A DNA stretch of 64,000 nt from Candidatus Moanibacter sp. Its GTDB lineage: Bacteria > Verrucomicrobiota > Verrucomicrobiia > Opitutales > UBA2987. The notes under the pieces are model-generated. The model was not told where the DNA came from and did not search any database. It saw only the letters and a list, made by a program, of their open reading frames with translations. Positions 13,223-60,235 of this stretch are shown here, in pieces. The translations under genes were made by a program, and so were the position numbers. Every line of letters starts with the position of its first letter. Positions within the stretch are counted from its first letter, which is position 1. The stretch covers positions 64,001 to 128,000 of the forward strand of contig CBDCEW010000103.1 of the NCBI GenBank assembly GCA_965215885.1. The letters run 5' to 3'.

Positions 13223-14335
13223 ATGAGCGCAAGAGACGTTAAAGCTGCCGATGCTGAGCGAGACCTGAGTGAGACGCAGGCCCCTACCTCGAGCGCGTCG
13301 GACTCTCCTCCTGAGACCGGTGATGTCGATGAGATCAAAGTGAAGCGTCAGCCGTCCGGTGATCTCGATTCACAGCTCAGGCTCCAGGATCTGTATCCTT
13401 CCGACAAGAGCGCCCTGAAACTCTACTTGAACGAGATCAGTCAAATTTCACTCCTTTCGCTCGAGGAAGAGACCGCCCTGGCCCGCCGTATTAGGAGGGG
13501 CGACGAAGATGCCCGCATGCACATGATCAAGGCGAATCTTCGCCTCGTTGTCAAAATTGCCCGCGACTATTCCAACTTCGGATTGCCTCTGCTCGACCTT
13601 ATCAGCGAAGGAAACATAGGTCTTATTAAGGCGGTCGAACGCTTCGATCCGGACAAAGGCGGGAAACTCAGCACTTACGCCGCTTGGTGGATCAAGCAGA
13701 GTATCAAACGCGCCCTGGCAAATCAAAGTAAGACCATCAGACTGCCCGTCCACCTTGTCGACAAGATTGCAAAATTGCGCAAGGTCGCACTCTCCCTCTC
13801 AGAGGAACTGGGACGCGAGCCTTCCGATGACGAAATCGCCTTCGAAATGGGGCTGCCTGTAAATAAGGTCTCCCATCTGAAGAGCGTCAGCATCCGTCCC
13901 ACGTCTCTGGATGCGCCCATCGGTGACGATCACGGAACTGAATTTGGAGATCTCGTGGGAGACGAGAATGCCATCAACCCTTTTGAGTACCTCCGGAGTA
14001 AATCGATTATTCGCGACATCAACAGAATGATCGACCAGCTCGACTCCCGGGAAGCTCAGATCGTGCGCATGCGTTTCGGGCTCGACGGAGAAAAACCCAG
14101 GACGCTGGAAGAGGTAGGCCAATACTTCCATATTACCAGAGAAAGGGTCCGTCAGCTCCAAAATATGGCCTTGGCAAGAATGCGAAAGTTAATTGCCCGC
14201 AAGGAACACCAAAGATCGACCGAGGAAATACGGGAAGAGCAGCTCCGGGAAGAGCGAATGAAAGTGCTGCGGGAATTTTACTCGGCAAGTTCTGTGGACG
14301 ACATTTCAAAGCCGGACATTTCACACACTTCGTAG
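13223..14335 (+). CDS. Sigma70 (RpoD/RpoS-like) sigma factor lacking region 1.1
   Basis: ANLRLVVKIA, DLISEGNIGL, STYAAWWIKQ, TIRLPVH, TLEEVG, TRERVRQ. Confidence 0.92.
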   Translation: MSARDVKAADAERDLSETQAPTSSASDSPPETGDVDEIKVKRQPSGDLDSQLRLQDLYPSDKSALKLYLNEISQISLLSLEEETALARRIRRGDEDARMHMIKANLRLVVKIARDYSNFGLPLLDLISEGNIGLIKAVERFDPDKGGKLSTYAAWWIKQSIKRALANQSKTIRLPVHLVDKIAKLRKVALSLSEELGREPSDDEIAFEMGLPVNKVSHLKSVSIRPTSLDAPIGDDHGTEFGDLVGDENAINPFEYLRSKSIIRDINRMIDQLDSREAQIVRMRFGLDGEKPRTLEEVGQYFHITRERVRQLQNMALARMRKLIARKEHQRSTEEIREEQLREERMKVLREFYSASSVDDISKPDISHTS

Positions 14336-14484
14336 CGAGACCGCGTAGATTGCTGCGTATCAAAGCCTTTCCGCAGCACGGCGGGCGACAGCGTGTTGGA
14401 ACCCTCTGAGGTCGCCGGGTAAGGGAAGGCTTTGAGACGCAGTGAGATCCGCGGTCGTAGTAGAAGCTTTGTTAAATGTTCGGG
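14312..14484 (+). repeat. ~174-bp palindromic element, family A, copy 1 (a 28-bp start of another copy follows at 14489-14516)
   Basis: CCGGACATTTCACACACTTCGTAGCGAGA...AAATGTTCGGG; near-identical to five other copies. Confidence 0.9.
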
Positions 14485-14530
14485 TTAACCCGGACATTTC
14501 ACACACTTCGTAGCGAAGTCCGACAGATTC

Positions 14531-16195
14531 CTATTTCGTCGCCTCGTCCAGAATATCGCCCAGACTTGTCAGCTCGTCACGTCCGATTGATTCATACGCT
14601 GCTGTTTCCGCCGCAAGTTGCTCTGAGTCATAATTGGCCGCCTTGATGCTGAGTCCGATTCGTCGATCATCGCGATCAATCTGAATAACACGAGTCGTAA
14701 CCTCCATCCCGTGCTGCAACACGTCCTTCACTTTCTCAACCCTCTCCTCACTTATCTGGCTAATATGGACGAGTCCATCGATGCCATGGTCCAGCTCGAC
14801 GAATGCGCCATAGGAAGTCATTTTGCTCACCTTACCCGTCACCACATCCCCGATCTTGTAGAACGTATCGATTTCGCTCCAGGGATCACTTGTGAGTTGC
14901 TTCATTCCCAGTGAAATGCGCTGACTCTCGGCCACCACATCGAGGACTATGGCATCCACTTCCTCTCCCTTTCTTACGATTTCACTGGGATGATTTATCT
15001 TGCGCGTCCACGACATGTCAGAGACATGAATCATGCCATCTATGCCTTCCTCAAGTTCGACGAATGCTCCGTAACTGGTGAGATTGCGTACTTTCCCTCG
15101 AACTCGTGCTCCCACCGGATAATTGTGCTTTACCATATCCCACGGATTTTGATCAAGTTGGCGCACACTGAGGGATATCTTTTGGTCGTCCTTCTGAATG
15201 CCCAGAACGACGGCGTCGATCTCTTCTCCAACTCTTAAGACCTCGTTGGGTTTGTTGATCCTCTTAGTCCACGAAAGCTCTGTCACGTGGACGAGACCTT
15301 CCACACCTTCCTCAAGCTCCACAAAAGCGCCGTAGGGTACAAGATTTACCACCTTTCCCCGGACCTGCGCGGTCACCGGATACCGCGTCTCTATACCTTC
15401 CCAGGGATTCGGGGTCGTCTGTTTCAGTCCCAGCGAAACCCGTTCACGGTCGCGGTCGACTTCAATTATCATGATGCTCACTTCTTCGCCCACCTTAACC
15501 ATTTCACTCGGATGGGAGATCCGCCCCCAACTCATGTCCGTTATGTGCAGCAGACCGTCCAATCCGTCCAGGTCGATGAATGCGCCGTAATCAGTGATGT
15601 TCTTAACTACTCCCCGTCGGACATCGCCGGGTTTTACTTCCGCCAGGAGTTCCCTCCGTTTTATCAGTCGTTGTTCCTCGATCAGTTCACGCCGGGAAAC
15701 TACGATGTTTTTCCGATCCTGGTTGATCTTCAGCACCTTAAAATCAAACGTCTGCCCAACGTATTGATCGAGATTCTTCGGTGGTTGAACGTCGATCTGC
15801 GAAGCGGGCAGGAATGAATCAACTCCAATGTTTACAATCAATCCCCCCTTAACTTTTGCCTTTACCCGGCCCGAAACTACCGAACCTTCCTCACACTTCG
15901 CCAGGATCTTCTCCCAGTTCTTTTTCTGCTCCGCCTTTTCGTAAGACAATATCGGGTTGCCGTCGCGGTCTTCCAGCCGCTCCAGGAATACCTCGATTTC
16001 TGCGCCGATCTGAAGCTCCCCTACATCGACAAATTCCGATGCGGAAATTCCCCCTTCCGCCTTGGCGCCGATATCTATGACGACTTCATTCTCTCTTATT
16101 TCAGTTATCGTACCGAGAACGATAGCGCCCTCTTTCAGGTTCTCAAAGCTGCTCTCGGCAAGCAATTCTTCCATAACGGAGGAACTCATAGGCAA
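14531..16195 (-). CDS. rpsA: 30S ribosomal protein S1
   Basis: Six S1 repeats (YGAFVEL, DGLLHITDMSW, RISLGMKQ). Confidence 0.97.
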   Translation of the reverse strand: MPMSSSVMEELLAESSFENLKEGAIVLGTITEIRENEVVIDIGAKAEGGISASEFVDVGELQIGAEIEVFLERLEDRDGNPILSYEKAEQKKNWEKILAKCEEGSVVSGRVKAKVKGGLIVNIGVDSFLPASQIDVQPPKNLDQYVGQTFDFKVLKINQDRKNIVVSRRELIEEQRLIKRRELLAEVKPGDVRRGVVKNITDYGAFIDLDGLDGLLHITDMSWGRISHPSEMVKVGEEVSIMIIEVDRDRERVSLGLKQTTPNPWEGIETRYPVTAQVRGKVVNLVPYGAFVELEEGVEGLVHVTELSWTKRINKPNEVLRVGEEIDAVVLGIQKDDQKISLSVRQLDQNPWDMVKHNYPVGARVRGKVRNLTSYGAFVELEEGIDGMIHVSDMSWTRKINHPSEIVRKGEEVDAIVLDVVAESQRISLGMKQLTSDPWSEIDTFYKIGDVVTGKVSKMTSYGAFVELDHGIDGLVHISQISEERVEKVKDVLQHGMEVTTRVIQIDRDDRRIGLSIKAANYDSEQLAAETAAYESIGRDELTSLGDILDEATK

Positions 16196-16476
16196 AATCT
16201 CTCTTCCTTTCCTACTCGGTCTTTTTCGTCTGTTCTCTTATCGGCTGTAATTTATCCCACAAAAGTAATTCCGGGCCAAATTAACACCGTTTCAATTGAA
16301 TAGCTCTTAAAAATCCAAACGATGCGAACTTTAACCGGACCCTGGGGCACTGAAACTGCCCTGGAAATAGGGGAAAGCGAATGAAACTGAAGTTTAATCC
16401 CAGGTCCTGCAAGCAAAAAACCAGTGCCGAGACTTCACCCTATTGTTTCAAGAATTCGAGAATGAAATGATGGGGA

Positions 16477-17361: not shown

Positions 17362-17718
17362 ACGTGATTACCTTGGATTCTGAAACAGTATCCGCAATTG
17401 TGAAGCGAAAAATATCAGCAAACGTTCACGTTTATCAAGGCTCCTCGGAAGCGGTTTCTCTGAACCTGTTTAGCGGTATCCGAAATCCCCCGGCCTTGCG
17501 CGCCGCAGGGGATCATTAGGATTTCGTGCTATACACGGACTGAGATTCCCAGACGAATTGTAAAAAAATAATAAAAATATTGTAAAAATCCCTGAAAATC
17601 TGTTTATTAGAAAATTAATAAGAATTACGGATATGGGCGCAAACAGGTGTGTGACTTGAAATTCTCGACATTGAAGGAGGTCACGAGACTCAGGCGCAGA
17701 TCGTAAAAACCTAATTAG

Positions 17719-21479: not shown

Positions 21480-21559
21480 CGGCTACACTCGGAAACTAAA
21501 CGGAGCGCCGCACATCTACCTCTAAGAAGACTGCATTAAGGTCAGCAATACCCAGTGCC

Positions 21560-22387: not shown

Positions 22388-22401
22388 TTGTGTCCCTCTA
22401 G

Positions 22402-22575
22402 CCCGGACATTTCACACACTTCGTAGTGAGACTGCGTAGGTTGCTGCGTATCGGTGCCTTTCCGCAGCACGGCGGGCGACAGCGTGTTGGAACCCTCTGA
22501 GGTCGCCGGACAAGGGAAGGCTTTGAGACGCAGTGACATCCGCGGTCGTAGCAGAAGATTTGTGAAATGTTCGGG
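22402..22575 (+). repeat. Family A palindromic element, copy 2
   Basis: CTAG-CCCGGACATTTCACA...TGTGAAATGTTCGGG-CTAG. Confidence 0.93.
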
Positions 22576-22583
22576 CTAGCACG

Positions 22584-23564
22584 CTATGAGCCTTTGTCGG
22601 GCATTGTCCCTACAATGTATTCGACGATTACGGAAAACTCCGAGTAATTCTCTTTAACGATGAGTATCGCGGAGGAGTCTTCCCCCCTACCTGCATCGCC
22701 GGAGAATCCAAACGGCGAAGGCCCGAGTAATTCTCTCCCTCTCTGCTTTCCCGTTTCTGATACCGGTTTCACCTCCACACCGCGAACGACATAAGGCCTC
22801 TCGAAATGGTTCAAGCTGTTCAGGAACTGGCGTAGCGTCCTCGTTTGACCCGTATATACCAACCGAATACCTAACGTATCGATAATGTCGGGAATACGCG
22901 CCGACACTTTCTCATCGATTTCAAAGAGATCCTTGCTTATGAACGGCTTCGAGGAATCTGCGGCACTCCCCCGCGCAGGATAGACCGGTTCTCTCTGCAC
23001 CTCAACAATCTCCCTCGGACCAGCTGCATAGAGCAGGTCCATCAAGAAGCGAATCAGCGACCGCTGCAAATCCACCACCCTGAGAACTTCGGGGGAGGGG
23101 CCTTCACCCGATTCGACAAATTCATCGAAGCCAAAATTCTCATCCTCTTTTACTCCGATTCCCAATTCGCCGGCGCTCTTTCGTAGTTCTTCCACCAGGC
23201 TTACAATCCTGAAATAGACATCCTCAGAATCGATCGGAGTCGATTCTATCTCTATCTCATCAGATAGATCTCGCCTCAGTTCACTTCGACTTGCTTCCAG
23301 GCGAGCCTCAAGCACATCAGAATTTATTCGCGCGCGCTCCCGATTTGCTTTCATGGGCGCAGGACTTCCATGCGACACCTCTCGCAGCAATCGTACTCTC
23401 TCCGATAGCATACTTTCCAATTCGCTACTCTCGCCCGCCAATGCGATTGTCCAGTACACCTCAGCGACGCACCCAGAAACAATGACTGCCACCAGAAGAG
23501 CAAATACCGGATTTTCCCTCAACCATCCCATTTCTCTTGAACCTGATTTTCGCATTGCGAGCAC
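22584..23564 (-). CDS. Amuc_1100-like (PilO/GspM-like) pilus-system protein
   Basis: N-terminal TM, coiled coil, FGFDEF...GP, LRQFLNSL...YVVRGVEV; cluster position. Confidence 0.7.
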   Translation of the reverse strand: MLAMRKSGSREMGWLRENPVFALLVAVIVSGCVAEVYWTIALAGESSELESMLSERVRLLREVSHGSPAPMKANRERARINSDVLEARLEASRSELRRDLSDEIEIESTPIDSEDVYFRIVSLVEELRKSAGELGIGVKEDENFGFDEFVESGEGPSPEVLRVVDLQRSLIRFLMDLLYAAGPREIVEVQREPVYPARGSAADSSKPFISKDLFEIDEKVSARIPDIIDTLGIRLVYTGQTRTLRQFLNSLNHFERPYVVRGVEVKPVSETGKQRGRELLGPSPFGFSGDAGRGEDSSAILIVKENYSEFSVIVEYIVGTMPDKGS

Positions 23565-23643
23565 TCTTGGGCTACTCTTCCAAAAAAATCCTGTTTCATC
23601 TACTTGACTCCGTTTGCGCCAAAGCGCTGAAATATCCGGGCTA

Positions 23644-23737
23644 GGAATCTGTCGGACTTAGCATTCCTAACATTTCCATGGTGCATATTTCAAGGTGACG
23701 GCTCGACATTCCGATCCAGATGAGACCGACAGATTCC
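23644..23737. repeat. Family B miniature element (94 bp)
   Basis: GGAATCTGTCGG...CCGACAGATTCC, preceded directly by an isolated family A right end (GAAATATCCGGG-CTAG). Confidence 0.8.
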
Positions 23738-23988
23738 TCGGAAGAAAATGAACCTGAGATTTGAGACATTTTGCCATATCTATTCCTTTCTCGAATACAA
23801 ATCTGATGACGAAAGATTGTCGCTGGCGGGTTGATCGTATCAAAATGGCCCATAGCGAAACCGCTGTGCAACAATTCGTCCTCCTTCCCACAAATCTCAG
23901 GTTCATTTTCTTGATTCTAGTCCCGGCTGGCCGGGATCGGAACGAAACCGGGTAATTCTTTTAAAGACGCATAAATTCCGACAGGCTG

Positions 23989-25733: not shown

Positions 25734-27217
25734 GGGTCTACAGCAGAATCTGTGGGTGGGTAACGTCGCTTACAAGAGGAAATAGAGTCGGTGAGCACAA
25801 GGAGAAGTCAGGGCGCTGCCCTGAATCCCGCTCCTCCACAGCCGGAGGGGCTGGTCGGTGTTTTCTTTGCATATGGGATTGAAAGGTTGAAGCACCGGGC
25901 CGTTCCGAGGATGAAAGTAGTACCGAAAATACATCCTGAACACGGAGGACCCAGTGCTCATCAAAACGCTACTGAATCGGTGCTATTGGCTCAAGAGCTT
26001 TGTTTACGCAAAGGCGAGTATGGAAATGGTGAAATCGGTGGAGGCGATTGTGGTGCAGATTGAGCCGCGCAAGAATAGTCGGGTGTGCTGTTCGGGGTGT
26101 GGCCGGACGGCCAGCGGCTACGACCACATGAGCGAGGCGAGGCATTTTGAATTTGTGCCCTTGTGGGGGATGAAGGTGTATTTTCGTTACCGCATGCGGC
26201 GGGTCAATTGCCGGCGGTGCGGGGTGAAGGTCGAAGAGGTGCCCTGGGCCAAGGGCAAGAGTCATCTGAGTTGGCCAATGCAATGGTTTCTGGCCCAGTG
26301 GGCGAGGCGCTTGAGCTGGGAAGAGACGGCAAGGGTTTTTCGCACGAACTGGCGCAACGTCTTCGAGTCGGTCGAGGCGATGGTGCGTTGGGGGCTCAAA
26401 CGGCGCGATATGAGCGGGATTGAGGCGATCGGAGTCGATGAGGTGCAGTATCATCGAGGCCATCACTATCTCACCGTGGTCTACCAGCTTGACGAGGGGC
26501 GGCGGCGGCTATTGGGCGTATTCAATAAGCGCAACGTAAAATCGCTCTTGCGTTTTTTCTGGGAATTGGGAGCGCAAAAGAGCAGCCAGATCCTCTACGT
26601 CTGCTCGGATCTGTGGAAGCCTTACCTCAAAGTGATCAAGAAAAAGGCACCCCAGGCGCTGCACATCCTCGATCGCTTCCACTTGGTAGCCAACCTGAAC
26701 AAGGCCCTCAATGAGATTCGTGCTGCGGAAGCCAGGCGATTGCAACGGGACGGCTACATCAACGTGCTGGTCAAAAGCAAATACTGTTTCTTCAAAAATC
26801 CGCAAAATCTCACCCCCACCCAACAGATCCGCCTCAAGGAGGTGCTCCAATACGATCTGAAGAGCGTGCGGGCCTATCTACTAAAGGAGAGCTTTCAGCT
26901 CTTGTGGCATTATAAAAGTCCCTACTGGGCCCAATGGTATCTGAAAAAATGGTGCACGCGCGCCATGCGTTCGCGCCTCAAACCGATCAAAAGGTTCGTG
27001 CGCTCGGTGCGCAAACACGAGCCGCTCATCCTCAACTGGTTTCGGGCCAAAAAGGCCTTTTCCTGCGGCATTGTGGAGGGCTTTAACCGCAATATAAATC
27101 TCACTATCAGAAAAGCATACGGCTTTAAGAGCTTCGAAGTGCTTAAGATCGCCCTATTTCATACCATGGGCGACTTGCCTGAACCCGAAATAACCCACAG
27201 ATTCTGCTGACGAGGCC
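25734..27217 (+). mobile_element. ISL3-family insertion sequence
   Basis: IR core CAGCAGAATCTGTGGG / CCCACAGATTCTGCTG; (C)TTCTTTT duplicated on both flanks (7-8 bp). Confidence 0.9.
25954..27210 (+). CDS. ISL3 transposase
   Basis: Zn finger CSGC..CRRC, IGVDE, CSDLW, LDRFH, VEGFN...AYGF. Confidence 0.93.
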   Translation: MLIKTLLNRCYWLKSFVYAKASMEMVKSVEAIVVQIEPRKNSRVCCSGCGRTASGYDHMSEARHFEFVPLWGMKVYFRYRMRRVNCRRCGVKVEEVPWAKGKSHLSWPMQWFLAQWARRLSWEETARVFRTNWRNVFESVEAMVRWGLKRRDMSGIEAIGVDEVQYHRGHHYLTVVYQLDEGRRRLLGVFNKRNVKSLLRFFWELGAQKSSQILYVCSDLWKPYLKVIKKKAPQALHILDRFHLVANLNKALNEIRAAEARRLQRDGYINVLVKSKYCFFKNPQNLTPTQQIRLKEVLQYDLKSVRAYLLKESFQLLWHYKSPYWAQWYLKKWCTRAMRSRLKPIKRFVRSVRKHEPLILNWFRAKKAFSCGIVEGFNRNINLTIRKAYGFKSFEVLKIALFHTMGDLPEPEITHRFC

Positions 27218-29821: not shown

Positions 29822-29886
29822 CGAAATGCTCCTGCATTCCGCTACGTTCCGATTCGAAGGGTGTAGCGGAAAGCGGAAGCTTTTCG
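29822..29886. repeat. Inverted doublet of GTAG-type REP-like units
   Basis: Reverse complement of GTAGCGGAATGCAGGAGCATTTCG at 29822-29845, and GTAGCGGAAAGCGGAAGCTTTTCG at 29863-29886; another unit at 44083-44106. Confidence 0.7.
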
Positions 29887-29966
29887 ATGGTGTCGCCACC
29901 GAATTGATCCATAATAGACCGTCCCGCCCGTCATTCCGCTCTGCCCTACGGCAGAGAAGCATTCGA

Positions 29967-32594: not shown

Positions 32595-33512
32595 CACGGT
32601 ATTTTGATTCTCGGAGCATTAGGTGATGATATTGATGGCCTTATGTAAGTTAAAGACGAAATCATCACAGAGTGCGGGAGTGGATTCAGCGCCCATGGAA
32701 GACTTGAGGCTGAGAACCAGTTGCCTGCATGCAGCAAGAATTCTGGCTGCGTGGGAGTAAGAATTATGATTACGGATCATACATCGATCTTCATCGAAGA
32801 AGCGATCCCTGGGGTAATGATTTTTATTTTCGATCGAGCAATGGTTGCGAATTTTCGAGAGGAACTGTTGAGGGCTCAAATCGGCGGGATCGAGACTGCT
32901 TACGTAGTAAGAGCGTTCAGAGGAAGGTTCAGCTTTGTTTGGATAATGGAAGGTGCGTTGCACACAGGCGAACTGGCGGGCATGGGGCAGGCCGGCAGAG
33001 GGAGCGCTTAGAGAATGGGTTGCTATTTGACGTATTTCGAGTCGCCCATGGTCATTGTCCACGGTTTGGTGGAGAAAAAGGGGGTGGAGCTGAAGAGATT
33101 CTGAGCGTATTGATGCATGTTGGGCTGATTGTCTTTAATTTGAATAACATAGTCAGCACTGAGTTCTTCGACGACGATGTGGGCAGTTTCTTTTTGATTA
33201 TGCATGGCGTCGAAGGTGAAGGTGGAGCCGTCCAAAATGGGCATCTTTCGCAAGAGAGTCTGGGCGGCGGTGATCTCGTTGGATTTATCGGCGGTAGCGA
33301 CTTGGGCTAAGGTTTGAGCGCTTTGGTGATCGACTGCGGCCACCAGGTGCAGAGCCTTTGATTCTTCGGTGTTTGTGCCTTTGAGGGTCTTGCCGTCGAC
33401 GGCAATATCGCGGGGCAAACAGCCGTCTTGTAAGCAGATGAATTCGGTGAGGGTTTTATCGAAGAGCTCGGCCTTTACGTTTTGCAAGACCCGATAGAAG
33501 ACATCATAGCAA
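32595..33512 (-). mobile_element. ISAs1-family element, 3' fragment cut by the adjacent IS
   Basis: Near-identical reverse complement of ~45098-46003; right IR CACGGTATTTTGATTCTCGG; ORFs 33023-33487 and 32619-33062. Confidence 0.9.
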
Positions 33513-35429: not shown

Positions 35430-35432
35430 TTA

Positions 35433-35773
35433 CTAGAAAAATCGGATCGTTTGCGACCCGCCTGCATGCGGGCGTGTTCTTCATCGGTGCAAGCAGCATT
35501 CAGCGGAACATCCGTCGTACCTTCATTTGGACGAACCAGTTCATTGCTCAACATATAGTTTTCCACTTCTTCTCCACTGACGTCTGCCAGCATCACACCG
35601 TCGATGTCCACGCAGGGAGAAAGCGTTTGGCCGGACTTCTCTACCATCTCGGCATAGATCTCAGGATTATTGATGATATCCTTATCTTCATACTCGAGAC
35701 TGTACTTGGCAAAGATTGCCCGCACACCTTTGCTCCATCCACACGTAGGTTTCAAATAAGCCGTAACTTTCAT
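35433..35773 (-). CDS. Glutaredoxin-like protein, apparent 1-nt frameshift near the C-terminus
   Basis: AYLKPTCGWS, SGQTLSPCVDIDG. A plausible native end SQTIRFF* lies in another frame (TAG 35435-35433); as read, the ORF runs into the IS to 35393. Confidence 0.8.
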
Positions 35774-35823
35774 AGTTTAATAATTCTACAGTTTATGAAT
35801 TTGTCTGCAACTTCACTTTTCTA

Positions 35824-37740: not shown

Positions 37741-37781
37741 TTTCTAGTGATCGAAAGACTCCTGCCAAGGAAAAATTCCTG

Positions 37782-37875
37782 GGAATCTGTCGGACCGTGC
37801 TTCTCTAATTTCCATGAGCTACGGAATTCCAGGTGAAGGATGGAGATCCCTACGAAGATGAAAACGACAGATTCC
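37782..37875. repeat. Family B miniature element (94 bp)
   Basis: GGAATCTGTCGG...CGACAGATTCC; colinear with 23644-23737. Confidence 0.75.
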
Positions 37876-37949
37876 TTCTTAGTCCCGGCAAGCCGGGGTA
37901 TCTGTTTCGAATATAGGAGAAAGTCCGTTCCCGACTTGCCGGGACTACC

Positions 37950-39367: not shown

Positions 39368-39542
39368 CCCGGTTATTTCACACACTTCGTAGCGAGACGG
39401 CGTAGATCGCTGCATATCATAGCTTTTTCGCAGACCGGCGGGCGACAGCGTGTTGGAACCTTCTGAGGTCGCCGGACAAGAGAAAGCTTTGAGATGCGGT
39501 GAGATCCGCTGTCGTAGCAGAAGGTTTGGTGAAATATCCGGG
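39368..39542 (+). repeat. Family A palindromic element, copy 3
   Basis: CCCGGTTATTTCAC...GTGAAATATCCGGG-CTAG. Confidence 0.9.
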
Positions 39543-39779: not shown

Positions 39780-39937
39780 AAATACCCCCTTAAGAATCTG
39801 TCGGAGTTACAAACTTTGAGATTCTTCATCGCAAACCTTGTCCCGAACCTTGTCGATCAAATACCCCCTTAAGAATCTGTCGGAGTTACAAACTTTGAGA
39901 TTCTTCATCGCAAACCTTGTCCCGAACCTTGTCGATC
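39780..39937. repeat. Exact 79-bp tandem duplication
   Basis: AAATACCCCCTTAAGAATCTGTCGG...CCTTGTCGATC at 39780-39858 and 39859-39937. Confidence 0.9.
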
Positions 39938-43088: not shown

Positions 43089-43262
43089 CCCGGACATTTC
43101 ACACACTTCGTAACGAGACGGCGTAGATTGCTGCGTGTCAATGCCTTTCCGAAGCGCGGCGGGCGACAGCGTGTTGGGACCCTCTGAGGTCGCCGGGTAA
43201 GGTAAGTCCTTGAGATGCAGTGATATCCGTCGTCGTAGTAGAAGGTTTGTGAGATGTTCGGG
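43089..43262 (+). repeat. Family A palindromic element, copy 4
   Basis: TTAG-CCCGGACATTTCACA...TGTGAGATGTTCGGG-TTAG. Confidence 0.9.
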
Positions 43263-43439: not shown

Positions 43440-43613
43440 CCCGGACATTTCACACACTTCGTAGCGAGACTGCGTAGGTTGCTGCGTATCACTGCCTTTC
43501 CGCAGCACGACGGGCGACAGTGTGTTGGAACCCTCTGAGGTCGCCGAGCAAGGGAAGGCTTTGAGACACAGTGACATCCGCGGTCGTGGCAGAAGGTTTG
43601 TGAAATGTTCGGG
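43440..43613 (+). repeat. Family A palindromic element, copy 5
   Basis: CTAG-CCCGGACATTTCACA...TGTGAAATGTTCGGG. Confidence 0.9.
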
Positions 43614-44109
43614 CAATGAACCGTGGTATGGCTACTGCACCCGTGGGTATTTTTTTAAAGATCTGTCCCACGGTGGGCTACGCCCCATCCCACTGTGTCT
43701 GCCGGATTATTCAAGTCTCCAGCTCGAATACATCCTCACTCATGTTTCCCTCCTTCATGCATCGATAACCGTGTGGAACCATGGTATGGCTACTGTCCCG
43801 CTCAGCGAGATGGGCACACTCTTTGCCATTTCCTCTCCACCTCGGACTTCCTCATCGTCCAAACGCTTCAGATTCCGCAATATCTACTTTCGAATCTCCC
43901 GCCTCTTCTACAGTCGATTCTCCCTGCGCGTCTTTCGGCCAGTGGCGGCCGTCGCCTCTTCCCCAGCAAGAAGCCACGGAACAGCCGAACTCAACGATAA
44001 TAAGCCGAAGAGAATAACTCGAGTCACCTTAGTGAATTATTAGACAGGAAGCCCGGATCGCAAACCCTGAAATCTCACAAGGGTAGCGGAAAGCGGGAGC
44101 TTTTCGATC

Positions 44110-46003
44110 CAGGGTAAAAGGATTCCAGGAAGCAACTAGCTGATAAGCAAGAAGATAAAAAAAGAGCTAAACAAACCCGAGGAAATCAGTCATGTTAAGA
44201 TGGGATGAAAGACAAAAAATCTTACCAACTGAATCCTTCGATAGATCGTTTAACTCTGCGTCTGGTCCTGCCCGAAGAGCAGGAGCGATTCAATGATCTA
44301 TTGAAACAACATCATTATTTACACAGTGCGGGCAGCGCAGGAGAGACCCTGCGCTATGTGGCGCAGATCGACGGGCAATGGATGGGCCTGCTCTTGTGGG
44401 GGGCCGCATCCTACCGGCTGACGGATCGAGACGAATGAATCGGGTGGGACGGGGCGCAACGGCATGCACGATTGAAACTGGTAGTACAGAACCGGCGTTT
44501 TCTGATTTTGCCCGGGGTGGATCTTGCAAATTTGGCCTCCAAGACGTTGGGTATGTGCCTGAGAGTCTTAGCCGATCACTGGCAGGAGGCTTTTGGCTAT
44601 CGTCCCTTAGTAGCGGAAACGTTCGTGGACCCACAGATTCACCGGGGCACTTGCTACGAAGCGAGCGGGTGGACGCCCTTGGGCTTGAGCGCGGGATATG
44701 GCCGCCAACGCGAAGATTTCTATCAACGCCATGAGCGTCCCAAGCAGATCTGGGTCAAACCCCTCAAGGCTAATGCCCTTGAGCTTTTGCGCGCTTCAGG
44801 GCCATTGCCCGCGGCACAGAGCCAGGCGCTCAATGAAACCGATAACTCCCATGCGGTCTGCCTCAAAGTGGAACAGATGAGCAGCCTGTGGGAACGCTTC
44901 AATCAGATAGAAGACTTCCGTCGTAAAGCGGGCCTTAGATATCGGCTCGCCACGGTCCTGAGCATGATTGTGCTCGGCACGATGTGCGGCAAACAGACCC
45001 TCAAGGGCATCGTGCGCCTGGCCCATCATCTCAATCAAGCCCAATTGCGCGCCTTACGCTCCTGGAAAAACCCCAAAACAGGCCGCTATAAGGCCCCTTG
45101 CTATGATGTCTTCTATCGGGTCTTGCAAAACGTAAAGGCCGAGCTCTTCGATAAAACCCTCACCGAATTCATCTGCTTACAAGACGGCTGTTTGCCCCGC
45201 GATATTGCCGTCGACGGCAAGACCCTCAAAGGCACAAACACCGAAGAATCAAAGGCTCTGCACCTGGTGGCCGCAGTCGATCACCAAAGCGCTCAAACCT
45301 TAGCCCAAGTCGCTACCGCCGATAAATCCAACGCGATCACCGCCGCCCAGACTCTCTTGCGAAAGATGCCCATTTTGGACGGCTCCACCTTCACCTTCGA
45401 CGCCATGCATAATCAAAAAGAAACTGCCCACATCGTCGTCGAAGAACTCAGTGCTGACTATGTTATTCAAATTAAAGACAATCAGCCCAACATGCATCAA
45501 TACGCTCAGAATCTCTTCAGCTCCACCCCCTTTTTCTCCACCAAACCGTGGACAATGACCATGGGCGACTCGAAATACGTCAAATAGCAACCCATTCTCT
45601 AAGCGCTCCCTCTGCCGGCCTGCCCCATGCCCGCCAGTTCGCCTGTGTGCAACGCACCTTCCATTATCCAAACAAAGCTGAACCTTCCTCTGAACGCTCT
45701 TACTACGTAAGCAGTCTCGATCCCGCCGATTTGAGCCCTCAACAGTTCCTCTCGAAAATTCGCAACCATTGGTCGATCGAAAATAAAAATCATTACCCCA
45801 GGGATCGCTTCTTCGATGAAGATCGATGTATGATCCGTAATCATAACGCAGCCAGAATTCTTGCTGCATGCAGGCAACTGGTTCTCAGCCTCAAGTCTTC
45901 CATGGGCGCTGAATCCACTCCCGCACTCTGTGATGATTTCGTCTTTAACTTACATAAGGCCATCAATATCATCACCTAATGCTCCGAGAATCAAAATACC
46001 GTG
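44110..46003 (+). mobile_element. ISAs1-family element with DUF4338 N-terminal fusion
   Basis: IRs CAGGGTAAAAGGATTCCAGGAAGCA / TGCTCCGAGAATCAAAATACCGTG; no target duplication. Confidence 0.85.
44205..45979 (+). pseudogene. DUF4338-ISAs1 transposase (in-frame TGA at 44436; -1 shift near 45530)
   Basis: HHYL, LRYVA, RRFLILP, NLASK, ETFVDP, GTCYEASGW (DUF4338); AVDGKTLKG, TFDAMH, IKDNQP, HGRLEIR, HWSIEN, RDRFFDED (ISAs1). Confidence 0.85.
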
Positions 46004-48884: not shown

Positions 48885-50739
48885 CTAGTCCTAAAATAAG
48901 CGCGTTTAAAGGTTGAACAGGAAACTTCGTTATTCCTAACGTTATTTGCCATGCTGGCGGTAGTTTTGCCGCCGCCACCCTTGGGCTGGTTTCATGTTTT
49001 GCTTTTTTTGAGTCATATCCGTTCTGTTTTAACGTTAGTTCTGTCCCCTTTTTTGGATACGCCGACAGTCCTTCCGTTGTGGCTGTGCGTTCGCGGTTAC
49101 TTGATCTGCTACCCAGGCGACATAGATCGGAATCGCTCCCAGGTGCTGATAAAATCTCCCATCCACTCGTTCCAGCTTAAAAGCCGATAAACAATTCGGC
49201 GCCCGCTTCGGATGATTTGCGCGGGGAGCAAGATGATGGCGTGAAGGAAGCGCCGAAACTCCATCTTCACGATCTCCAACCCCCGCAGGCGGTTGGGCAT
49301 GAGTAATCCATACCACGCCTTCAGGTTCCAGGCCAATGCTGTCATTACCATATAGGCCCAATTGCTCAAAAGATCATCCACGGGCATACGCATCGCATTA
49401 ACCCCGTTTTTGAGTTGCTCAATAACGTTCTCCTGATCGCAGCGTTGATTCGCAAAGGCGACCACCTGCTCCTTAGTCAGGTCCCTACGATTTGTGATAT
49501 AAAAAAAGTAGCGGATCTCATCAAAGAGCACTACTTCGCCCTTTTGCACACTGATGTTCTTACGCACCACCACCATCCGATAGGTCTTTTTGCACTTGTT
49601 GGGCCGATAGTCCAACTCGGCCACACTTTCTGCCTCCAGCACCTTGTTTTCAAAACCCTTCTGGTGCACGATCCCTTCCTTCACTCGCGGCGCTTTAGCT
49701 CTCGATTCGGTCGCTATTTCATGCTTGGGCAACCGCTCCAGTTCGCTCCAGGCCGTCTCTCTGAACTCCTCGGCCAGTCCCACCACTTTGGGATGCGCAT
49801 CCATTCCGAAGATAAATCCCGTTCCTTCTTCATCCCACCGATCGAAGTTTTCTGTCAACGAAAAGTCCGTATCCCCTCGCAAGCAGATTTTCCCCGCATG
49901 CGCACGCACAAGTTCCACCGCCCGATCAATCCACTTTACGCATCCCTCATGGCTAGTCTCATTGCCCGGTCGATTCACCATGTAGAGCACTTCCCTGGTA
50001 TTTGCCAAACTCACGATCAGCGGTGCATAGCCCCAGATCCCCTTATAGCTTATTCCCATACCCCCTTTGCACTTCCCTCTCGTCTGCGCTATCGTCCCGT
50101 CCACATCGATGAACGCCTCCTCCATGAATCCTTTTGCCTGCTTGTTCCACACCCCTTGCCGTATCCGGTTGATCCCTTCCATCAATTTTTCGATCGCGCC
50201 TTCATCAAAGCGTCGGGTGAAGTCTCCACTGGTCGTCGGATCCGGTATCCTCTGCGCTCCTAAGGCATTCAGAAAAACCTCGTCCTTGCGGCGCAATTCG
50301 ATGTCTTCGAGCCGGATCCCTCCCAATAATGCGTTGTAGGCTATGTTGAGCACATGATCACTCTCATGATACGGCAGGTGGCGCTTGAGCAACTGCACGC
50401 TCTGGTCGAGCTCTTCCACCAACCCCAGTCTCTTCACCATCAGGTGAATCGCTCCTATCCCTCCACAACTCACCCCTTTGCCTCGTTCGGCCGTCTCGTA
50501 GTGGATGTTGCTCGCTTTGAACATCGGTTTGGCCTGTTCAGGCCAGCCCCGATTTCTAAGCCGATGCTTTATTCTTCTCTTGCTATTGTGGAGGTTCTTG
50601 CGGTATCTTCTTTTCACTCGAAACGTCCTTTTTTTCTGGGTGGTTTTTTTGGTCGATTAACAGTTTTCCCAGTATCTAAGCGCGTTTCGAGCTTTTTATT
50701 GCGTTAGGTATATTCCAATCACACTTGTTCGAGGTCTAG
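48885..50739 (-). mobile_element. IS1380-family insertion sequence
   Basis: Imperfect IRs CTAGTCCTAAAATAAGCGCG / CACACTTGTTCGAGGTCTAG; CTAG may be the target duplication. Confidence 0.75.
49109..50617 (-). CDS. IS1380 transposase
   Basis: IDVDGT, GYAPL, RPGN, LRGDTDF, NQRCDQENVIEQLK, ALAWNL. Confidence 0.9.
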   Translation of the reverse strand: MKRRYRKNLHNSKRRIKHRLRNRGWPEQAKPMFKASNIHYETAERGKGVSCGGIGAIHLMVKRLGLVEELDQSVQLLKRHLPYHESDHVLNIAYNALLGGIRLEDIELRRKDEVFLNALGAQRIPDPTTSGDFTRRFDEGAIEKLMEGINRIRQGVWNKQAKGFMEEAFIDVDGTIAQTRGKCKGGMGISYKGIWGYAPLIVSLANTREVLYMVNRPGNETSHEGCVKWIDRAVELVRAHAGKICLRGDTDFSLTENFDRWDEEGTGFIFGMDAHPKVVGLAEEFRETAWSELERLPKHEIATESRAKAPRVKEGIVHQKGFENKVLEAESVAELDYRPNKCKKTYRMVVVRKNISVQKGEVVLFDEIRYFFYITNRRDLTKEQVVAFANQRCDQENVIEQLKNGVNAMRMPVDDLLSNWAYMVMTALAWNLKAWYGLLMPNRLRGLEIVKMEFRRFLHAIILLPAQIIRSGRRIVYRLLSWNEWMGDFISTWERFRSMSPG

Positions 50740-53332: not shown

Positions 53333-53358
53333 TTCGCCTTACTCTCTTACTATTCTTC

Positions 53359-54447: not shown

Positions 54448-54449
54448 GG

Positions 54450-54962: not shown

Positions 54963-55061
54963 CTTGGTAGACTATAGCAGCTTGTCTCCGAAATTAAAGT
55001 GAATAAAGCAATTGTGAATAAGTGGGGTTTCTCTCCTACCTCATGTTCCGCTATGCAAAAT

Positions 55062-56380
55062 CAGTACTGTCCGGTTATAAGTCAAACAACTCCAACTGTT
55101 TAGGAATGCGGTGTTCATTGAAAGTGTAATCGGTTTCTGTAAGTAGTTCAGTCATAGGAGTTTTCTCAAATAGGGTGAAGCTGAGAATCTGTAGGATTTT
55201 GTGCAAACTGATCTCCAGGCGAAGGCGTTTGCGGATGATGGCGATGAGCACATAGACGCTGACGGCAATCCAGATTTGAGTCTTCACAGCATTCTCGGAG
55301 GTGCCGAAAAAGCTCTTGATGCGCAAGTGCTGTTTGATCCATTTGAAGAACAATTCGATCTGCCAGCGTAAACGGTAAATCTGGGTGATGATTATGGCTG
55401 GGAGGGCAAACTGGTTGGTGAGAAACACGAAGCGCTCGGAACTGTCGGGGTCGAGGTAAGTGATACGCCGGAGTCTTTCGGGGTAGGCCTTGGCAGGATA
55501 GAAGCTGACCAGGGCAACGGTCTGGTCCGAACGCAGACCGGTTGATTTGTCGACCTTTTGAGAGTAGAGGCGGCGAAACTGAAAGCCGCGGCGGGCGCGT
55601 GTGACGAAGAAAGAACCGCATTGTGCGATCCGATAGAGGCGCTCGTAATGCAGATAGGCTCGGTCCATTACATAGTAAGCACCGGCCTCGGGGATGATGA
55701 GATCCAGAATGTTTACGTCGTGAACTTTTCCATCGGTAATCTCGATAAAATAAGGGATAGAGCCTCTGAGATCGAGAAGCGTATGGACCTTCACCGCCCC
55801 CTTGTGCTTGCGGAAACGTGCCCACGGGAAGAGTGATAGACATAGATCGATCGTGGTGGAGTCCAGAGCGTAGAGCGTATTGTCCAGGTCGATGCCCAGA
55901 TCCTCGTTTGAATACAAAGGACGAGCCATTGCGATGAGGACCTGTGCAAAGTCGGCGTAGATGCGCCAGTCTCGTTTCTCGTTGGCATCGGCGAGCGTGC
56001 TTTTGGATACTCCGCTTCGAATCCCTGCGTGGTATAGTTTTGGTTGTACTGCCCGCAGGCAGGTTTCGATGTCGCGCAGACTCTCCCGGTAGGTCAACTC
56101 GGCAAAACCCATGCAGAGAAATTGTTCGAAGCAACTGAACTTTTGAACTTTGTAGTCGCCTCCGTAGCGTTGGACGCAACGATGGAACTGATGGCGCGGA
56201 AGATAATCTATGATTTGAGAAAAAACGAATCGACCTGTATACATGATTTGGACCCTCGAAATTTTTGAGAGTCCACAAGGCTTTTTGCAATTTCAAGTCG
56301 AAAACAGCAGAAATCATATGTAAAATGTTGGTTATCAATCGATTAACCTGCGTTCCTAGAAAAACAACCGGACAGTAGTG
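55062..56380 (-). mobile_element. IS4-family insertion sequence, copy 1 (1319 bp)
   Basis: IRs CAGTACTGTCCGGTT / AACCGGACAGTAGTG; 9-bp target duplication ATGCAAAAT. Confidence 0.93.
55075..56244 (-). CDS. IS4 transposase (DUF4372 N-terminus)
   Basis: LDSTTI, MDRAY, YRLRWQIELFFKWIKQ. Confidence 0.93.
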   Translation of the reverse strand: MYTGRFVFSQIIDYLPRHQFHRCVQRYGGDYKVQKFSCFEQFLCMGFAELTYRESLRDIETCLRAVQPKLYHAGIRSGVSKSTLADANEKRDWRIYADFAQVLIAMARPLYSNEDLGIDLDNTLYALDSTTIDLCLSLFPWARFRKHKGAVKVHTLLDLRGSIPYFIEITDGKVHDVNILDLIIPEAGAYYVMDRAYLHYERLYRIAQCGSFFVTRARRGFQFRRLYSQKVDKSTGLRSDQTVALVSFYPAKAYPERLRRITYLDPDSSERFVFLTNQFALPAIIITQIYRLRWQIELFFKWIKQHLRIKSFFGTSENAVKTQIWIAVSVYVLIAIIRKRLRLEISLHKILQILSFTLFEKTPMTELLTETDYTFNEHRIPKQLELFDL

Positions 56381-56504
56381 ATGCAAAATATGTGCCAAAT
56401 CTCTCCGGAAGCGTCCGCAATTCTCATTTTCGCCCCAAGCCTAAGAATCGCTGGTAGGGAGCTTTTCGTCGGGTTGATTCATTAATCGGCGATATTTTCC
56501 AAAG

Positions 56505-57371
56505 CTAAAGCAATGTTCCCTCACCCGCAACTTTACCTCGAAATCTTTCCATAAACTGCTCGGTTACGGACCCCGGTTTACCTGTGCCGATTATCCGGCT
56601 GTCGACTTCCGTTACCGGTATCACCTCCGCGGCGGTCCCCGTTAAGAAGCATTCTTCAGCGACCCATAAATCATAGCGGGTCAGATCTGCCTCCTTCAAA
56701 GGGATGTCGATCTCCCTGGCGATGTCGATTGCAACCTGCCGCGTGATTCCTCTGAGGGCGCCGGCATTCGTAGGTGGAGTAATGATCGACCCCTTATGTA
56801 CGATGAATACATTGTCTCCCGTACACTCCGAGACGAAGCCCTGGTCATTGAGCATTATCGCTTCCATATACCCGCTGTTAACGGCCTCAAGTTTCGCCAT
56901 GATGTTGTTGAGGTAATTTAGAGACTTGATCATCGGTGGAAGCGCAGCCGGATTCGTTCTTCGCGAAGCAACCGTGATAATCTTGAGCCCTTCACTATAG
57001 TATTCCTCAGGGTACAGCTGAATCTTGTCGGCGATCACTATCAGCGCAGGGTCTTTGCACAGTTTAGGGTTTAAACCCAGCGTCCCGCACCCCCGTGTTA
57101 CCAATAATCGGATATAGCCGTCCTTCAGCTCGTTTGCACGGCATGTATCACATACGGCCTCCGAGATCTCCTCCCGGGACCATGGCAGATTCAGCATTAT
57201 CGCTTTCGCTGAATATTCCAGGCGCTCGAGGTGTTCCCCCAGTTTAAAGACGCATCCCTCATAGAGACGAATGCCTTCAAACACTCCATCTCCATACAAA
57301 AGGCCATGGTCGAATACCGATATCTTCGCATCGGCTTTTTCTACCATCTCTCCTCTCAGATATACCTTCAT
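56505..57371 (-). CDS. ilvE: Branched-chain amino acid aminotransferase
   Basis: DHGLLYGDGVFEG, IKSLNYLNN, LRGITR, ECFLTGTAAEV. Confidence 0.95.
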   Translation of the reverse strand: MKVYLRGEMVEKADAKISVFDHGLLYGDGVFEGIRLYEGCVFKLGEHLERLEYSAKAIMLNLPWSREEISEAVCDTCRANELKDGYIRLLVTRGCGTLGLNPKLCKDPALIVIADKIQLYPEEYYSEGLKIITVASRRTNPAALPPMIKSLNYLNNIMAKLEAVNSGYMEAIMLNDQGFVSECTGDNVFIVHKGSIITPPTNAGALRGITRQVAIDIAREIDIPLKEADLTRYDLWVAEECFLTGTAAEVIPVTEVDSRIIGTGKPGSVTEQFMERFRGKVAGEGTLL

Positions 57372-57432
57372 TGAATGTCCTGTCTCAGTCCACTCGACCA
57401 TTCAGTGTCGTGATTCATATATAACATCGCAC

Positions 57433-58751
57433 CAGTACTGTCCGGTTATAAGTCAAACAACTCCAACTGTTTAGGAATGCGGTGTTCATTGAAAGTGTAA
57501 TCGGTTTCTGTAAGTAGTTCAGTCATAGGAGTTTTCTCAAATAGGGTGAAGCTGAGAATCTGTAGGATTTTGTGCAAACTGATCTCCAGGCGAAGGCGTT
57601 TGCGGATGATGGCGATGAGCACATAGACGCTGACGGCAATCCAGATTTGAGTCTTCACAGCATTCTCGGAGGTGCCGAAAAAGCTCTTGATGCGCAAGTG
57701 CTGTTTGATCCATTTGAAGAACAATTCGATCTGCCAGCGTAAACGGTAAATCTGGGTGATGATTATGGCTGGGAGGGCAAACTGGTTGGTGAGAAACACG
57801 AAGCGCTCGGAACTGTCGGGGTCGAGGTAAGTGATACGCCGGAGTCTTTCGGGGTAGGCCTTGGCAGGATAGAAGCTGACCAGGGCAACGGTCTGGTCCG
57901 AACGCAGACCGGTTGATTTGTCGACCTTTTGAGAGTAGAGGCGGCGAAACTGAAAGCCGCGGCGGGCGCGTGTGACGAAGAAAGAACCGCATTGTGCGAT
58001 CCGATAGAGGCGCTCGTAATGCAGATAGGCTCGGTCCATTACATAGTAAGCACCGGCCTCGGGGATGATGAGATCCAGAATGTTTACGTCGTGAACTTTT
58101 CCATCGGTAATCTCGATAAAATAAGGGATAGAGCCTCTGAGATCGAGAAGCGTATGGACCTTCACCGCCCCCTTGTGCTTGCGGAAACGTGCCCACGGGA
58201 AGAGTGATAGACATAGATCGATCGTGGTGGAGTCCAGAGCGTAGAGCGTATTGTCCAGGTCGATGCCCAGATCCTCGTTTGAATACAAAGGACGAGCCAT
58301 TGCGATGAGGACCTGTGCAAAGTCGGCGTAGATGCGCCAGTCGCGTTTCTCGTTGGCATCGGCGAGCGTGCTTTTGGATACTCCGCTTCGAATCCCTGCG
58401 TGGTATAGTTTTGGTTGTACTGCCCGCAGGCAGGTTTCGGTGTCGCGCAGACTCTCCCGGTAGGTCAACTCGGCAAAACCCATGCAGAGAAATTGTTCGA
58501 AGCAACTGAACTTTTGAACTTTGTAGGCGCCTCCGTAGCGTTGGACGCAACGATGGAACTGATGGCGCGGAAGATAATCTATGATTTGAGAAAAAACGAA
58601 TCGACCTGTATACATGATTTGGACCCTCGAAATTTTTCAGAGTCCACAAGGCTTTTTGCAATTTCAAGTCGAAAACAGCAGAAATCATATGTAAAATGTT
58701 GGTTATCAATCGATTAACCTGCGTTCCTAGAAAAACAACCGGACAGTAGTG
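57433..58751 (-). mobile_element. IS4-family insertion sequence, copy 2
   Basis: Same IRs as copy 1; 9-bp target duplication ACATCGCAC. Confidence 0.93.
57446..58615 (-). CDS. IS4 transposase
   Basis: Two amino-acid differences from copy 1 seen. Confidence 0.93.
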   Translation of the reverse strand: MYTGRFVFSQIIDYLPRHQFHRCVQRYGGAYKVQKFSCFEQFLCMGFAELTYRESLRDTETCLRAVQPKLYHAGIRSGVSKSTLADANEKRDWRIYADFAQVLIAMARPLYSNEDLGIDLDNTLYALDSTTIDLCLSLFPWARFRKHKGAVKVHTLLDLRGSIPYFIEITDGKVHDVNILDLIIPEAGAYYVMDRAYLHYERLYRIAQCGSFFVTRARRGFQFRRLYSQKVDKSTGLRSDQTVALVSFYPAKAYPERLRRITYLDPDSSERFVFLTNQFALPAIIITQIYRLRWQIELFFKWIKQHLRIKSFFGTSENAVKTQIWIAVSVYVLIAIIRKRLRLEISLHKILQILSFTLFEKTPMTELLTETDYTFNEHRIPKQLELFDL

Positions 58752-59157
58752 ACATCGCACAGGTGAAAGCGCCATTAGTTGCATCGCCGACTCTATCCGA
58801 TGATCATGCGATTGAAAGTAAGAAATCAATCCCCACTTCCCCATTCGTTGCCCTTCATTCATTCGTTGCTCACTCTCCCCTTCCACCGACCACCCCTCTT
58901 CCAATCTGCCACTCCCTCTCTTTAATGAATCCGTAAGTGGCTCCTCTCTACTACTAACTCGAAAAGGTTTATTTTCTTACGAAGAAATTTCTTAACCGCG
59001 TACAGAACCCGTTGATGTTCAAGAAATATGGTTCTGTTCCTTCAAAGTGAAAGTCTCGCTAAGAAAATCTCAACGGAACATCCCGCTGAGCGGGACCGTA
59101 CGGCAGACTCTACGAGATTGCACGTTGAACAAATCCACGGTTTTCTCGAATCCGTGG

Positions 59158-59997
59158 TCAATTCTTCTTTATTCGCGTCCATTCGCGTTCATCTGCGGTT
59201 CCCCTCTTTTCCTCATTTTGGTTGCGGCTTCGCTGCGCTAAGAAATCCGTGATTACTCTCTTCTCCCGATACCTCAAGATCAACCAGAACAGGCGCTGTG
59301 CCTTCCAGTAACGCGGAATGAATTTGAACGGTTCCGCCAAACACCGCGCCAGCCAACCCAGGATCATCCGATCCATCCAGGGTGAAATAGGAGCCTGTCG
59401 CCCACTCAAGAAGGCAATCGCCGCTCCCGTACAAATAATAGCCGGATTGTATTCGAGGCGCTTCTTCAGATAATACCCCAATTTTTCCTGCACGCCGCCC
59501 CCTATGTTTACCAGAATGTAACGCGACTTCTGCTCTATCAGACGCTCCACCAAGTCCTCGTCCTCCACCTCATCCTTGGAGTAAATCGGGGCGACATAGC
59601 GACTCTCCTCCCCCACCATGATTCCCTTTTTCTCCAACCATTGTCGGTTCGCGAGGTCATCCTCCACACTCGGCATGATCCAAAAGGTTTCGCCACCCCC
59701 CTTAAACATCGCGTCTTCGATGAGTTGACTCAAGAAACGCAATCCCGACAGCCGCTCCAGCTTCTCCCCTCTAATCAGCCGCCAGCACAACACCATGAAT
59801 CCACTGTCCGTCAACGCCAGATCACATTTCTCCACCGCTTCCTGATACACTCGATCTCGCGGCAAATCCGCCAGTCCCGGACCCGATGGCACCAGCACCA
59901 ACCCCCCTTGGTGTACGCGTGCCACCGCCTCTTCCACACTCCCGGTAAAAAAGCGTATCCCAAGAATCGTCCTGAACGGTTCCTCCTTCACCCCCAA
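59158..59997 (-). CDS. WecB/TagA/CpsF family glycosyltransferase
   Basis: DSGFMV, RLSGL, IGGGVQEKLG, CTGAAI, LGWLARC..EP...PRY; the C-terminal tail reads into repeat sequence. Confidence 0.85.
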   Translation of the reverse strand: MGVKEEPFRTILGIRFFTGSVEEAVARVHQGGLVLVPSGPGLADLPRDRVYQEAVEKCDLALTDSGFMVLCWRLIRGEKLERLSGLRFLSQLIEDAMFKGGGETFWIMPSVEDDLANRQWLEKKGIMVGEESRYVAPIYSKDEVEDEDLVERLIEQKSRYILVNIGGGVQEKLGYYLKKRLEYNPAIICTGAAIAFLSGRQAPISPWMDRMILGWLARCLAEPFKFIPRYWKAQRLFWLILRYREKRVITDFLAQRSRNQNEEKRGTADEREWTRIKKN

Positions 59998-60052
59998 AGT
60001 ATCTCACTCCGGAATCCCCAGTATTGCCAACTCTTTTCTCCCTCGTGCCTAG

Positions 60053-60235
60053 CCCGGACATTTCACACACATCGTAGCGAGAATGCGTAGCTTGTTGCGG
60101 ATCAAGGCCTTTTCGCAGTCCGGCGGGCGATCCCGGCGTGCCGGGATTGGAACCCTCTGAGGTCGCCGGGCAAGGGAAGGGTTGGAGGCGCAGTGAGATT
60201 CGCAGTCGCAGCAGATGGTTTGTGAATTGTTCGGG
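60053..60235 (+). repeat. Family A palindromic element, copy 6 (extra hairpin in loop)
   Basis: CTAG-CCCGGACATTTCACA...TGTGAATTGTTCGGG with internal ATCCCGGCGTGCCGGGAT. Confidence 0.88.

Follow-up and report, generated by a model that had tools for sequence, protein, structure and literature searches.

What moves a repeat that is too short to carry a transposase gene, and why does this repeat keep a fold along one of its strands? These questions are raised by a 64,000-nucleotide stretch of a Candidatus Moanibacter genome (contig CBDCEW010000103.1, positions 64,001 to 128,000; hereafter the window), which carries six copies of a 174-bp element that we refer to as family A. The original prediction, drawn from the sequence letters, described them as a non-autonomous mobile element with a conserved single-stranded fold, either a MITE (miniature inverted-repeat transposable element) or a structured non-coding RNA. 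Here we report that family A is a gene-less MITE whose rod-like fold is selected and strand-specific, and that an enzyme of the IS1380 family is its very probable mover.

Copy number, mobility and target site

The source genome of the window, G000 (6.36 Mb in 105 contigs, 90% complete), contains 219 family A loci by BLAST, 143 of them near full length. The element has terminal inverted repeats of 13-15 bp and occurs in many dispersed copies in both orientations; at 174 bp it cannot hold a transposase gene. Both ends were present in 133 copies, which were flanked by CTAG on both sides in 101 cases and by a left flank ending in G in 126. For window copy 1 an empty site was found in a related strain, where a contig (run X7, record 25) joins window position 14308 to 14487. 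The 178 bp absent there correspond to one element (174 bp) plus one 4-bp duplication. Tandem family A copies have one tetranucleotide in common between them. Inverted-repeat ends, duplication and empty site thus bear out the predicted non-autonomous mobile element.

All six predicted window copies are present on the + strand, with copy 1 beginning at 14311, one base left of the position first given. They are 82-93% identical to copy 1, and all are intergenic. The common orientation emphasized in the prediction holds for six of six in the window (p ~0.09 given a local 2:1 bias) but not genome-wide, where 72 near-full copies lie on the + and 71 on the - strand. The CTAG and TTAG flanks reported for copies 2 and 4 were recovered from the sequence. 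One of two reported fragments is a left end, which is retained in the related strain without copy 1; the other is a lone end, but its interior differs.

Outside G000, of 60 relatives one (G006) gave a DNA match over the full length (85-89% identical). No further genome with a full-length match occurred among 400 of the order, where short end matches were seen in five, and a first scan of a genome collection with the exact left end gave no match. A pattern scan for two ends 158-188 bp apart, which imposes both the ends and the length range, returned at least 84 loci in genomes and at least 120 in metagenomes. Among the matches listed, as in all counts below that derive from this cross-genome set, hosts by record title were Planctomycetota, Verrucomicrobia, Acidobacteriota, Nitrospirales, Hydrogenedentota, Gemmatimonadetes, Myxococcota, Desulfobacteraceae, and Alpha- and Gammaproteobacteria. 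Lengths were 173-180 bp in 133 and 158-161 bp in 47 of 204 loci. The shorter class (L079, L129, L145, L227, L232 and others) shares the IS1380-type ends and has another rod body between them. A covariance model matched 2 of 150 genomes sampled from the phylum of G000; such patchiness would be expected for a horizontally moving element. A plasmid search gave one chance match among 72,556 records.

Because CTAG is palindromic, G000 cannot separate a 4-bp from a TA duplication. We therefore considered the 77 loci without a CTAG flank among the 204 cross-genome matches listed (loci not de-duplicated). Identical non-palindromic flanks were present in 26 of them, compared to 6.8 expected (maximum 15 in 5000 shuffles), and reverse-complement flanks in only 3. 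The target duplication is 4 bp with the consensus YTAR, in line with the YTAG target originally proposed.

Rod fold, covariation and strand asymmetry

The + strand of copy 2 forms one unbranched rod with RNA parameters (-90.3 kcal/mol, z -7.3), and none of 200 shuffles folded as well, in agreement with the single nested hairpin that had been described. The opposite strand reached -65.3 kcal/mol (z -4.7), and with DNA parameters the z values were -5.0 for the + and -3.2 for the opposite strand. The + strand folded better in 133 of 133 copies, both as RNA and as DNA.

Copies with replaced segments caused RNAalifold to collapse on the raw set of 133. Covariation was assessed on a tree of 94 distinct copies, leaving out 35 with a mini-palindrome insert and 4 duplicates. 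Paired columns changed on the same branch 30 times, compared to 6.4 times with shuffled pairings (maximum 17 in 2000). Inner Watson-Crick pairs changed to G.T rather than A.C on the + strand at ratios of 33:5 on internal and 52:27 on terminal branches. At unpaired sites the G.T-type and A.C-type changes numbered 25/1913 and 25/2135 (16/1959 and 34/2177 on terminal branches), and variants present in one copy only showed no G.T excess (8 vs 14). The excess is confined to paired sites on propagating branches; it reflects a filter on lineages that keep copying and not mutation bias.

The same picture emerged across genomes. The 119 cross-genome copies form 30 groups below 80% identity (median 51%), and the strand set by two short loop motifs was the better-folding one in 117 of 119. 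When window copy 2 was aligned with 29 subfamily representatives, 43 of 55 pairs had changed on both sides, and 90.5% of cells were paired, as against 68% with shuffled and 30-44% with slid pairings. Several unpaired loop bases were nearly invariant, 955 of 1249 unpaired bases in 30 representatives were A or G, and a 2x3 purine-rich loop (RA opposite GCA) recurs along the rod. Together, these results show that the rod fold is selected and strand-specific, and they substantiate the claim of full-length conservation with covariation; the stem variants quoted for copies 3 and 4 were likewise found. The window had no Rfam match at gathering score, and 20 homologous loci gave four weak matches, none of them on the element.

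Which transposase moves the element

At locus L303, a 1582-bp element with family-A-type ends encodes a transposase that passes NF033539 (390 bits; cut-off 180). The family A end is identical at 13 of 15 positions to the ends of the IS1380 elements L303 and L041, and similar ends were seen in 2 further relatives among 9 examined. Within the single genome G401, two types of MITE end agree at every position (15/15 and 18/18 nt) with the ends of two resident IS1380 elements. G000 itself has a 3' IS1380 remnant on contig C104 with an end 13/15 identical to family A. Judged by these shared ends, it is very probable that an IS1380-family transposase, supplied in trans, cuts and pastes the element. 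Family A is best called an IS1380-type MITE; of the two identities first proposed, the MITE with a conserved fold fits better than a stand-alone non-coding RNA gene.

The original prediction also stated that no transposase in the window shares the family A ends, and this is borne out. An IS1380-family transposase is present there (Table 1), but it belongs to another clade, with different ends and mostly 6-bp NCTAGN duplications as opposed to 4 bp; direct repeats of IS1380 elements fall in the 4-5 bp range. The wider search for a transposase with matching ends yielded the remnant in G000 and the IS1380 elements elsewhere, but no intact one in G000.

Several candidates were rejected. The abundant 515-aa IS1380 element with the 6-bp duplication and a 556-aa ISNCY-like element have different ends, and a single-copy open reading frame (ORF) at 22584-23564, which lies between copy 2 and the lone end, had no Pfam match and is not a transposase. 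L302 was not counted as a partner, as the frame tested matched no NCBIfam family. An 840-bp element with family A ends proved to be a copy interrupted by a group II intron. A scan for terminal inverted repeat pairs over IS1380 loci was too noisy and was not used.

The same body between other ends

A model restricted to the interior matched 34 genomes out of 151 from the phylum to which G404 belongs. Reading one locus per genome, we found IS1380-type ends at 5 of 29 loci and other ends, of at least three types, at 24. The apical stem motif was present in 19 of 36 IS1380-ended and 18 of 23 other-ended loci; the respective counts were 6 of 36 and 12 of 23 for an inner loop module, and 32 of 36 and 3 of 23 for the outer module. 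The interior model matched neither the 158-161-bp class nor the IS1380 elements themselves (0/18 loci; IS1380 loci 0/7). The other-ended loci would be MITEs of other families; transposases behind these end types were not found, 13 DUF772 loci being only loosely alike and 5 viral loci showing no likeness.

That one body occurs between unrelated ends suggests that it has a job of its own. We tentatively raise the possibility that the body serves several unrelated transposon families as a reusable functional module, its folded single strand carrying repeated GA-rich loops that a protein reads; each family might have adopted it with its own ends, since it would allow gene-less elements to multiply.

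Orientation, replication strand and the role of the fold

Across phyla, the folding strand was read from flanking genes about as often as the other (38 vs 31). This lack of a consistent orientation speaks against a role in host mRNA and for the element's own life cycle. Orientation was also compared with the replication strand, a check that the original prediction had proposed. The folding strand lay on the C-rich strand in 105 of 158 copies in G000 and 35 of 46 in G006 (after exclusion of 3 copies close to skew switches), so that the orientation is biased 2-3:1 in these two genomes without being fixed. In both genomes dnaA is found on the G-rich strand, so it is probably the lagging-strand template that the folding strand avoids. 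The bottom strands of attC sites in sedentary integrons likewise avoid this template, as described in PMC5371416.

Considering these data, we estimate a probability of about three in four that selection on the fold operates within the element's own life cycle and not on behalf of the host. As to the folded molecule, we would give slightly less than an even chance that it is DNA exposed at the replication fork and not RNA. The proposed sequence of events is as follows. An IS1380-family transposase supplied in trans would cut the element out and insert it via its ends. When multiplying, the element would pass through a single-stranded DNA state, and its body would be kept foldable on one strand. 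Copies with the folding strand on the lagging-strand template may fold more often and also be more often mobilized or lost; the excess seen on the other strand would be the result.

A number of observations weigh against this scenario. No bias was detectable in G404 (22 of 38; 43 dropped for weak skew), and pooled loci were evenly split, with 44 of 86 on the C-rich strand. The bias of only 2-3:1 could also arise from passive loss of any hairpin, and tRNA genes lean to the C-rich strand (27 vs 16), making the leading/lagging assignment less secure. The two strands differ more in folding energy under RNA parameters (21 kcal/mol) than under DNA parameters (8 kcal/mol). DDE transposases act on double-stranded ends, so that no known step needs the fold. 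G000, 90% complete, has no intact cognate transposase and only three fragments of the cognate IS1380 clade, and the incomplete assembly G405 had 89 end matches and yet no PF13701 match. Finally, when the G000 flanks are taken alone, 12 of 133 fit TA only and 1 of 133 the 4-bp model only, many being one mutation from CTAG.

In the alternative that fares best, the body of an IS1380-type MITE acts as an RNA of its own, or as a piece cut from read-through transcripts, and aids spread, for instance by binding the transposase or a host protein. RNA typically shows G.U-type pairs, purine-rich loops and 2x3 GA-rich loops such as those recurring here, it is as RNA that the folding is most asymmetric, the near-invariant unpaired bases suggest a binding site, and independence from flanking genes fits a self-contained RNA. 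We nevertheless consider it rather unlikely, because an RNA role by itself does not predict a replication-strand bias and no Rfam family matched. The single RNA run contains the organism and element copies as contigs, which give neither strand, transcript ends nor level, and no inference was drawn from it.

It is improbable that the fold is a mere by-product, with template switching (arm-to-arm copying) keeping the arms complementary and the structure unused. This would be consistent with 15 double Watson-Crick changes on terminal branches, some in adjacent columns, with a body that is often edited or deleted while the ends persist, and with the 158-161-bp class having another body between the same ends. 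However, arm copying would make both strands a perfect palindrome and remove the G.T pairs and loops, whereas the loops are conserved across phyla and the asymmetry is restricted to paired sites on propagating branches.

Host selection on mRNAs, with the fold acting as a terminator, stabilizer or RNase III site as in ERIC or Correia elements, is more improbable still. Such roles have been reported for other MITEs (PMC2229807, in its account of these families), and in G000 the copies are enriched between convergent genes (68 of 156, compared to a background of 22%). Against this, the folding strand is read no more than the other across phyla and less in G000 (51 vs 80), and sites are not fixed between strains. 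Lastly, the 29 Y1_Tnp and 2 IS630 matches in G000 and the flank pairs that fit only TA (22/204 across genomes, 12/133 in G000) might suggest that an HUH enzyme of the REPIN/RAYT type acting on single-stranded DNA, or IS630 at TA, moves the element and that the IS1380 likeness is due to chance, which we regard as hardly credible, as none of 19 Y1 loci read was bracketed by family A ends, both IS630 copies have other ends, and non-palindromic 4-bp direct repeats rather than TA, as well as exact sharing of ends with IS1380 elements, were seen in the family.

About a dozen RAYT-like Y1 proteins of 320-350 aa are encoded in G000, and no REP-like repeats were seen within 260 bp of their flanks. One Y1 locus has a family A copy ~200 bp downstream.

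Relation to known systems

Family A has terminal inverted repeats in common with the IS1380 family (NF033539, PF13701; e.g., IS1247, PMC3281130), although it lacks a transposase and its body is unrelated to the seven IS1380 loci tested. The direct repeat of IS1247 is listed as 5 bp in PMC3281130, compared to 4 bp here. For piggyBac, with IS1380 as outgroup, TTAA targets and CCC ends are described (PMC10813416).

Among structured repeats, bcr1 of the Bacillus cereus group (PMC3184786) is similar: it is non-autonomous and dispersed, ~155 bp long and flanked by direct repeats, and its single-strand fold shows compensatory changes. By its description it is set apart as a cruciform with 5-bp repeats in one species group, whereas family A is a rod with IS1380 ends found across phyla. 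ERIC, RUP, Correia/NEMIS and YPAL (PMC2229807) are, like family A, intergenic MITEs of 100-200 bp with long stem-loops; as presented there, most duplicate TA and RUP is tied to IS630, whereas family A duplicates 4 bp and has IS1380 as its partner. The MRSC-65-2 motif (PMC11109978) resembles family A as a single long covarying stem with dozens of copies per genome in diverse phyla, possibly acting as DNA. It is described with a repeated UYCCGG, of which two or more copies occurred in 0 of 119 family copies on the folding strand and in 7 of 119 on the other. The supplement of that paper lists 250 mobile or repeat motifs.

The "predicted short RNA elements" Gmet_R1001-R1024 of Geobacter metallireducens (PMC2700814, 2009) match, as reverse complement and by eye, the body in L393, including the apical stem. 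Their listing gives a length of ~113 nt and contains no IS1380 ends and no analysis of mobility, fold or mechanism. Integron attC sites, as treated in PMC5371416, are an analogy only: family A has no cassette array and no integrase link, and it has target duplications.

The core boxes of attC are AAC/GTT, and the sites form direct arrays that follow cassette genes. In family A the left flanks end in G (126/133), not A, and the copies lie scattered in either orientation. With bcr1 and ERIC, examples of structured MITEs that carry compensatory changes are already known; the IS1380-ended rod family appears to be new to the literature searched, in which we found no description of it or of one body with several ends, with the qualification that ISfinder and the PMC11109978 supplement, outside this search, may list it.

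Features of the window and other repeats

Coordinates are compiled in Table 1. The window also has a second TA(G)-ended repeat family of ~92 bp that folds weakly (23642-23738, 6564-6588, 9373-9494, 37780-37876), and family A copies are often inserted at the end of this repeat. A 16-nt palindrome with a variable 2-nt loop, located at 60131-60146 in copy 6, occurs at 283 sites genome-wide, 61 of them near family A copies. It takes the place of element segments of 7-111 nt at a few recurrent breakpoints and replaces segments likewise in other repeats and in G006. Four family A copies contain a group II intron that lacks an ORF (RF02005; 169 and 165 bits for the two tested); it sits 13 nt from one end, on the strand opposite to the element. 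Since the three intron-bearing copies with a complete body come from different subfamilies, the intron likely homes repeatedly into the MITE end. Further features are an exact 79-bp tandem duplication (39780-39937) and a GTAG-footed REP-like palindrome in two copies (29863-29888, 44083-44108). The load of insertion sequences (IS) is very high, with two tandem ISNCY-like, two IS4-like (DUF4372), ISAs1-like, ISL3 and IS200-like elements.

Table 1 Positions of family A copies and associated features (window coordinates unless a G000 contig is named)
Feature	Position	Strand	Remarks
Family A MITE copy 1	14311-14484	+	Flanks CAAA/TTAA; missing from related strain
Truncated left end (28 nt) of older family A copy	14489-14516	+	One TTAA in common with copy 1; runs into end of another repeat
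Copy 2, left 4-bp target duplication CTAG	22398-22401		Right one at 22576-22579
Copy 2	22402-22575	+	CTAG duplication on both sides; reference for folds and models
Copy 2, left terminal inverted repeat	22402-22416	+	Right one at 22561-22575; IS1380-type end
Copy 2, body	22419-22558	+	Rod that folds strand-specifically, its internal loops rich in purines; found between unrelated ends as well
Lone family-A-type end	23628-23640	-	Followed by different interior; adjoins CTAG and second repeat family
Copy 3 (175 bp)	39368-39542	+	Flanks CTGG/CTAG
Copy 4	43089-43262	+	TTAG/TTAG, a non-palindromic direct duplication
Copy 5	43440-43613	+	Flanks CTAG/CAAT
IS1380-family element	48890-50734		Transposase 49109-50617 (515 aa); ~20 copies in G000
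Copy 6 (183 bp)	60053-60235	+	16-nt mini-palindrome in place of 7 nt near tip
IS-rich segments	33512-37724, 44100-45600, 55062-58700, 25954-27210, 60490-60945
Intron-bearing family A copies in G000	C103:131484-132319, C91:21771-22611, C49:14814-15649, C90:117680-118391		First one just right of window
RAYT-like Y1 loci in G000	C30:23356, C89:24005, C59:10306, C36:22995, C104:142587 and others

Implications

The family marks a gap in annotation: copies number 100 or more per genome, and Rfam has no model. It is a long-standing open question why ERIC, bcr1 and other bacterial MITEs retain long single-strand folds and by what they are moved. For family A, end matches that are exact within single genomes now identify the likely transposase family, and across phyla the fold is kept at ~50% identity; with a likely mover and a conserved fold at hand, the role of the fold becomes open to direct experiment. 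If the body is indeed a reusable module, this would mean an unrecognized single-stranded step or RNA partner in the amplification of DDE-transposase MITEs across many phyla.

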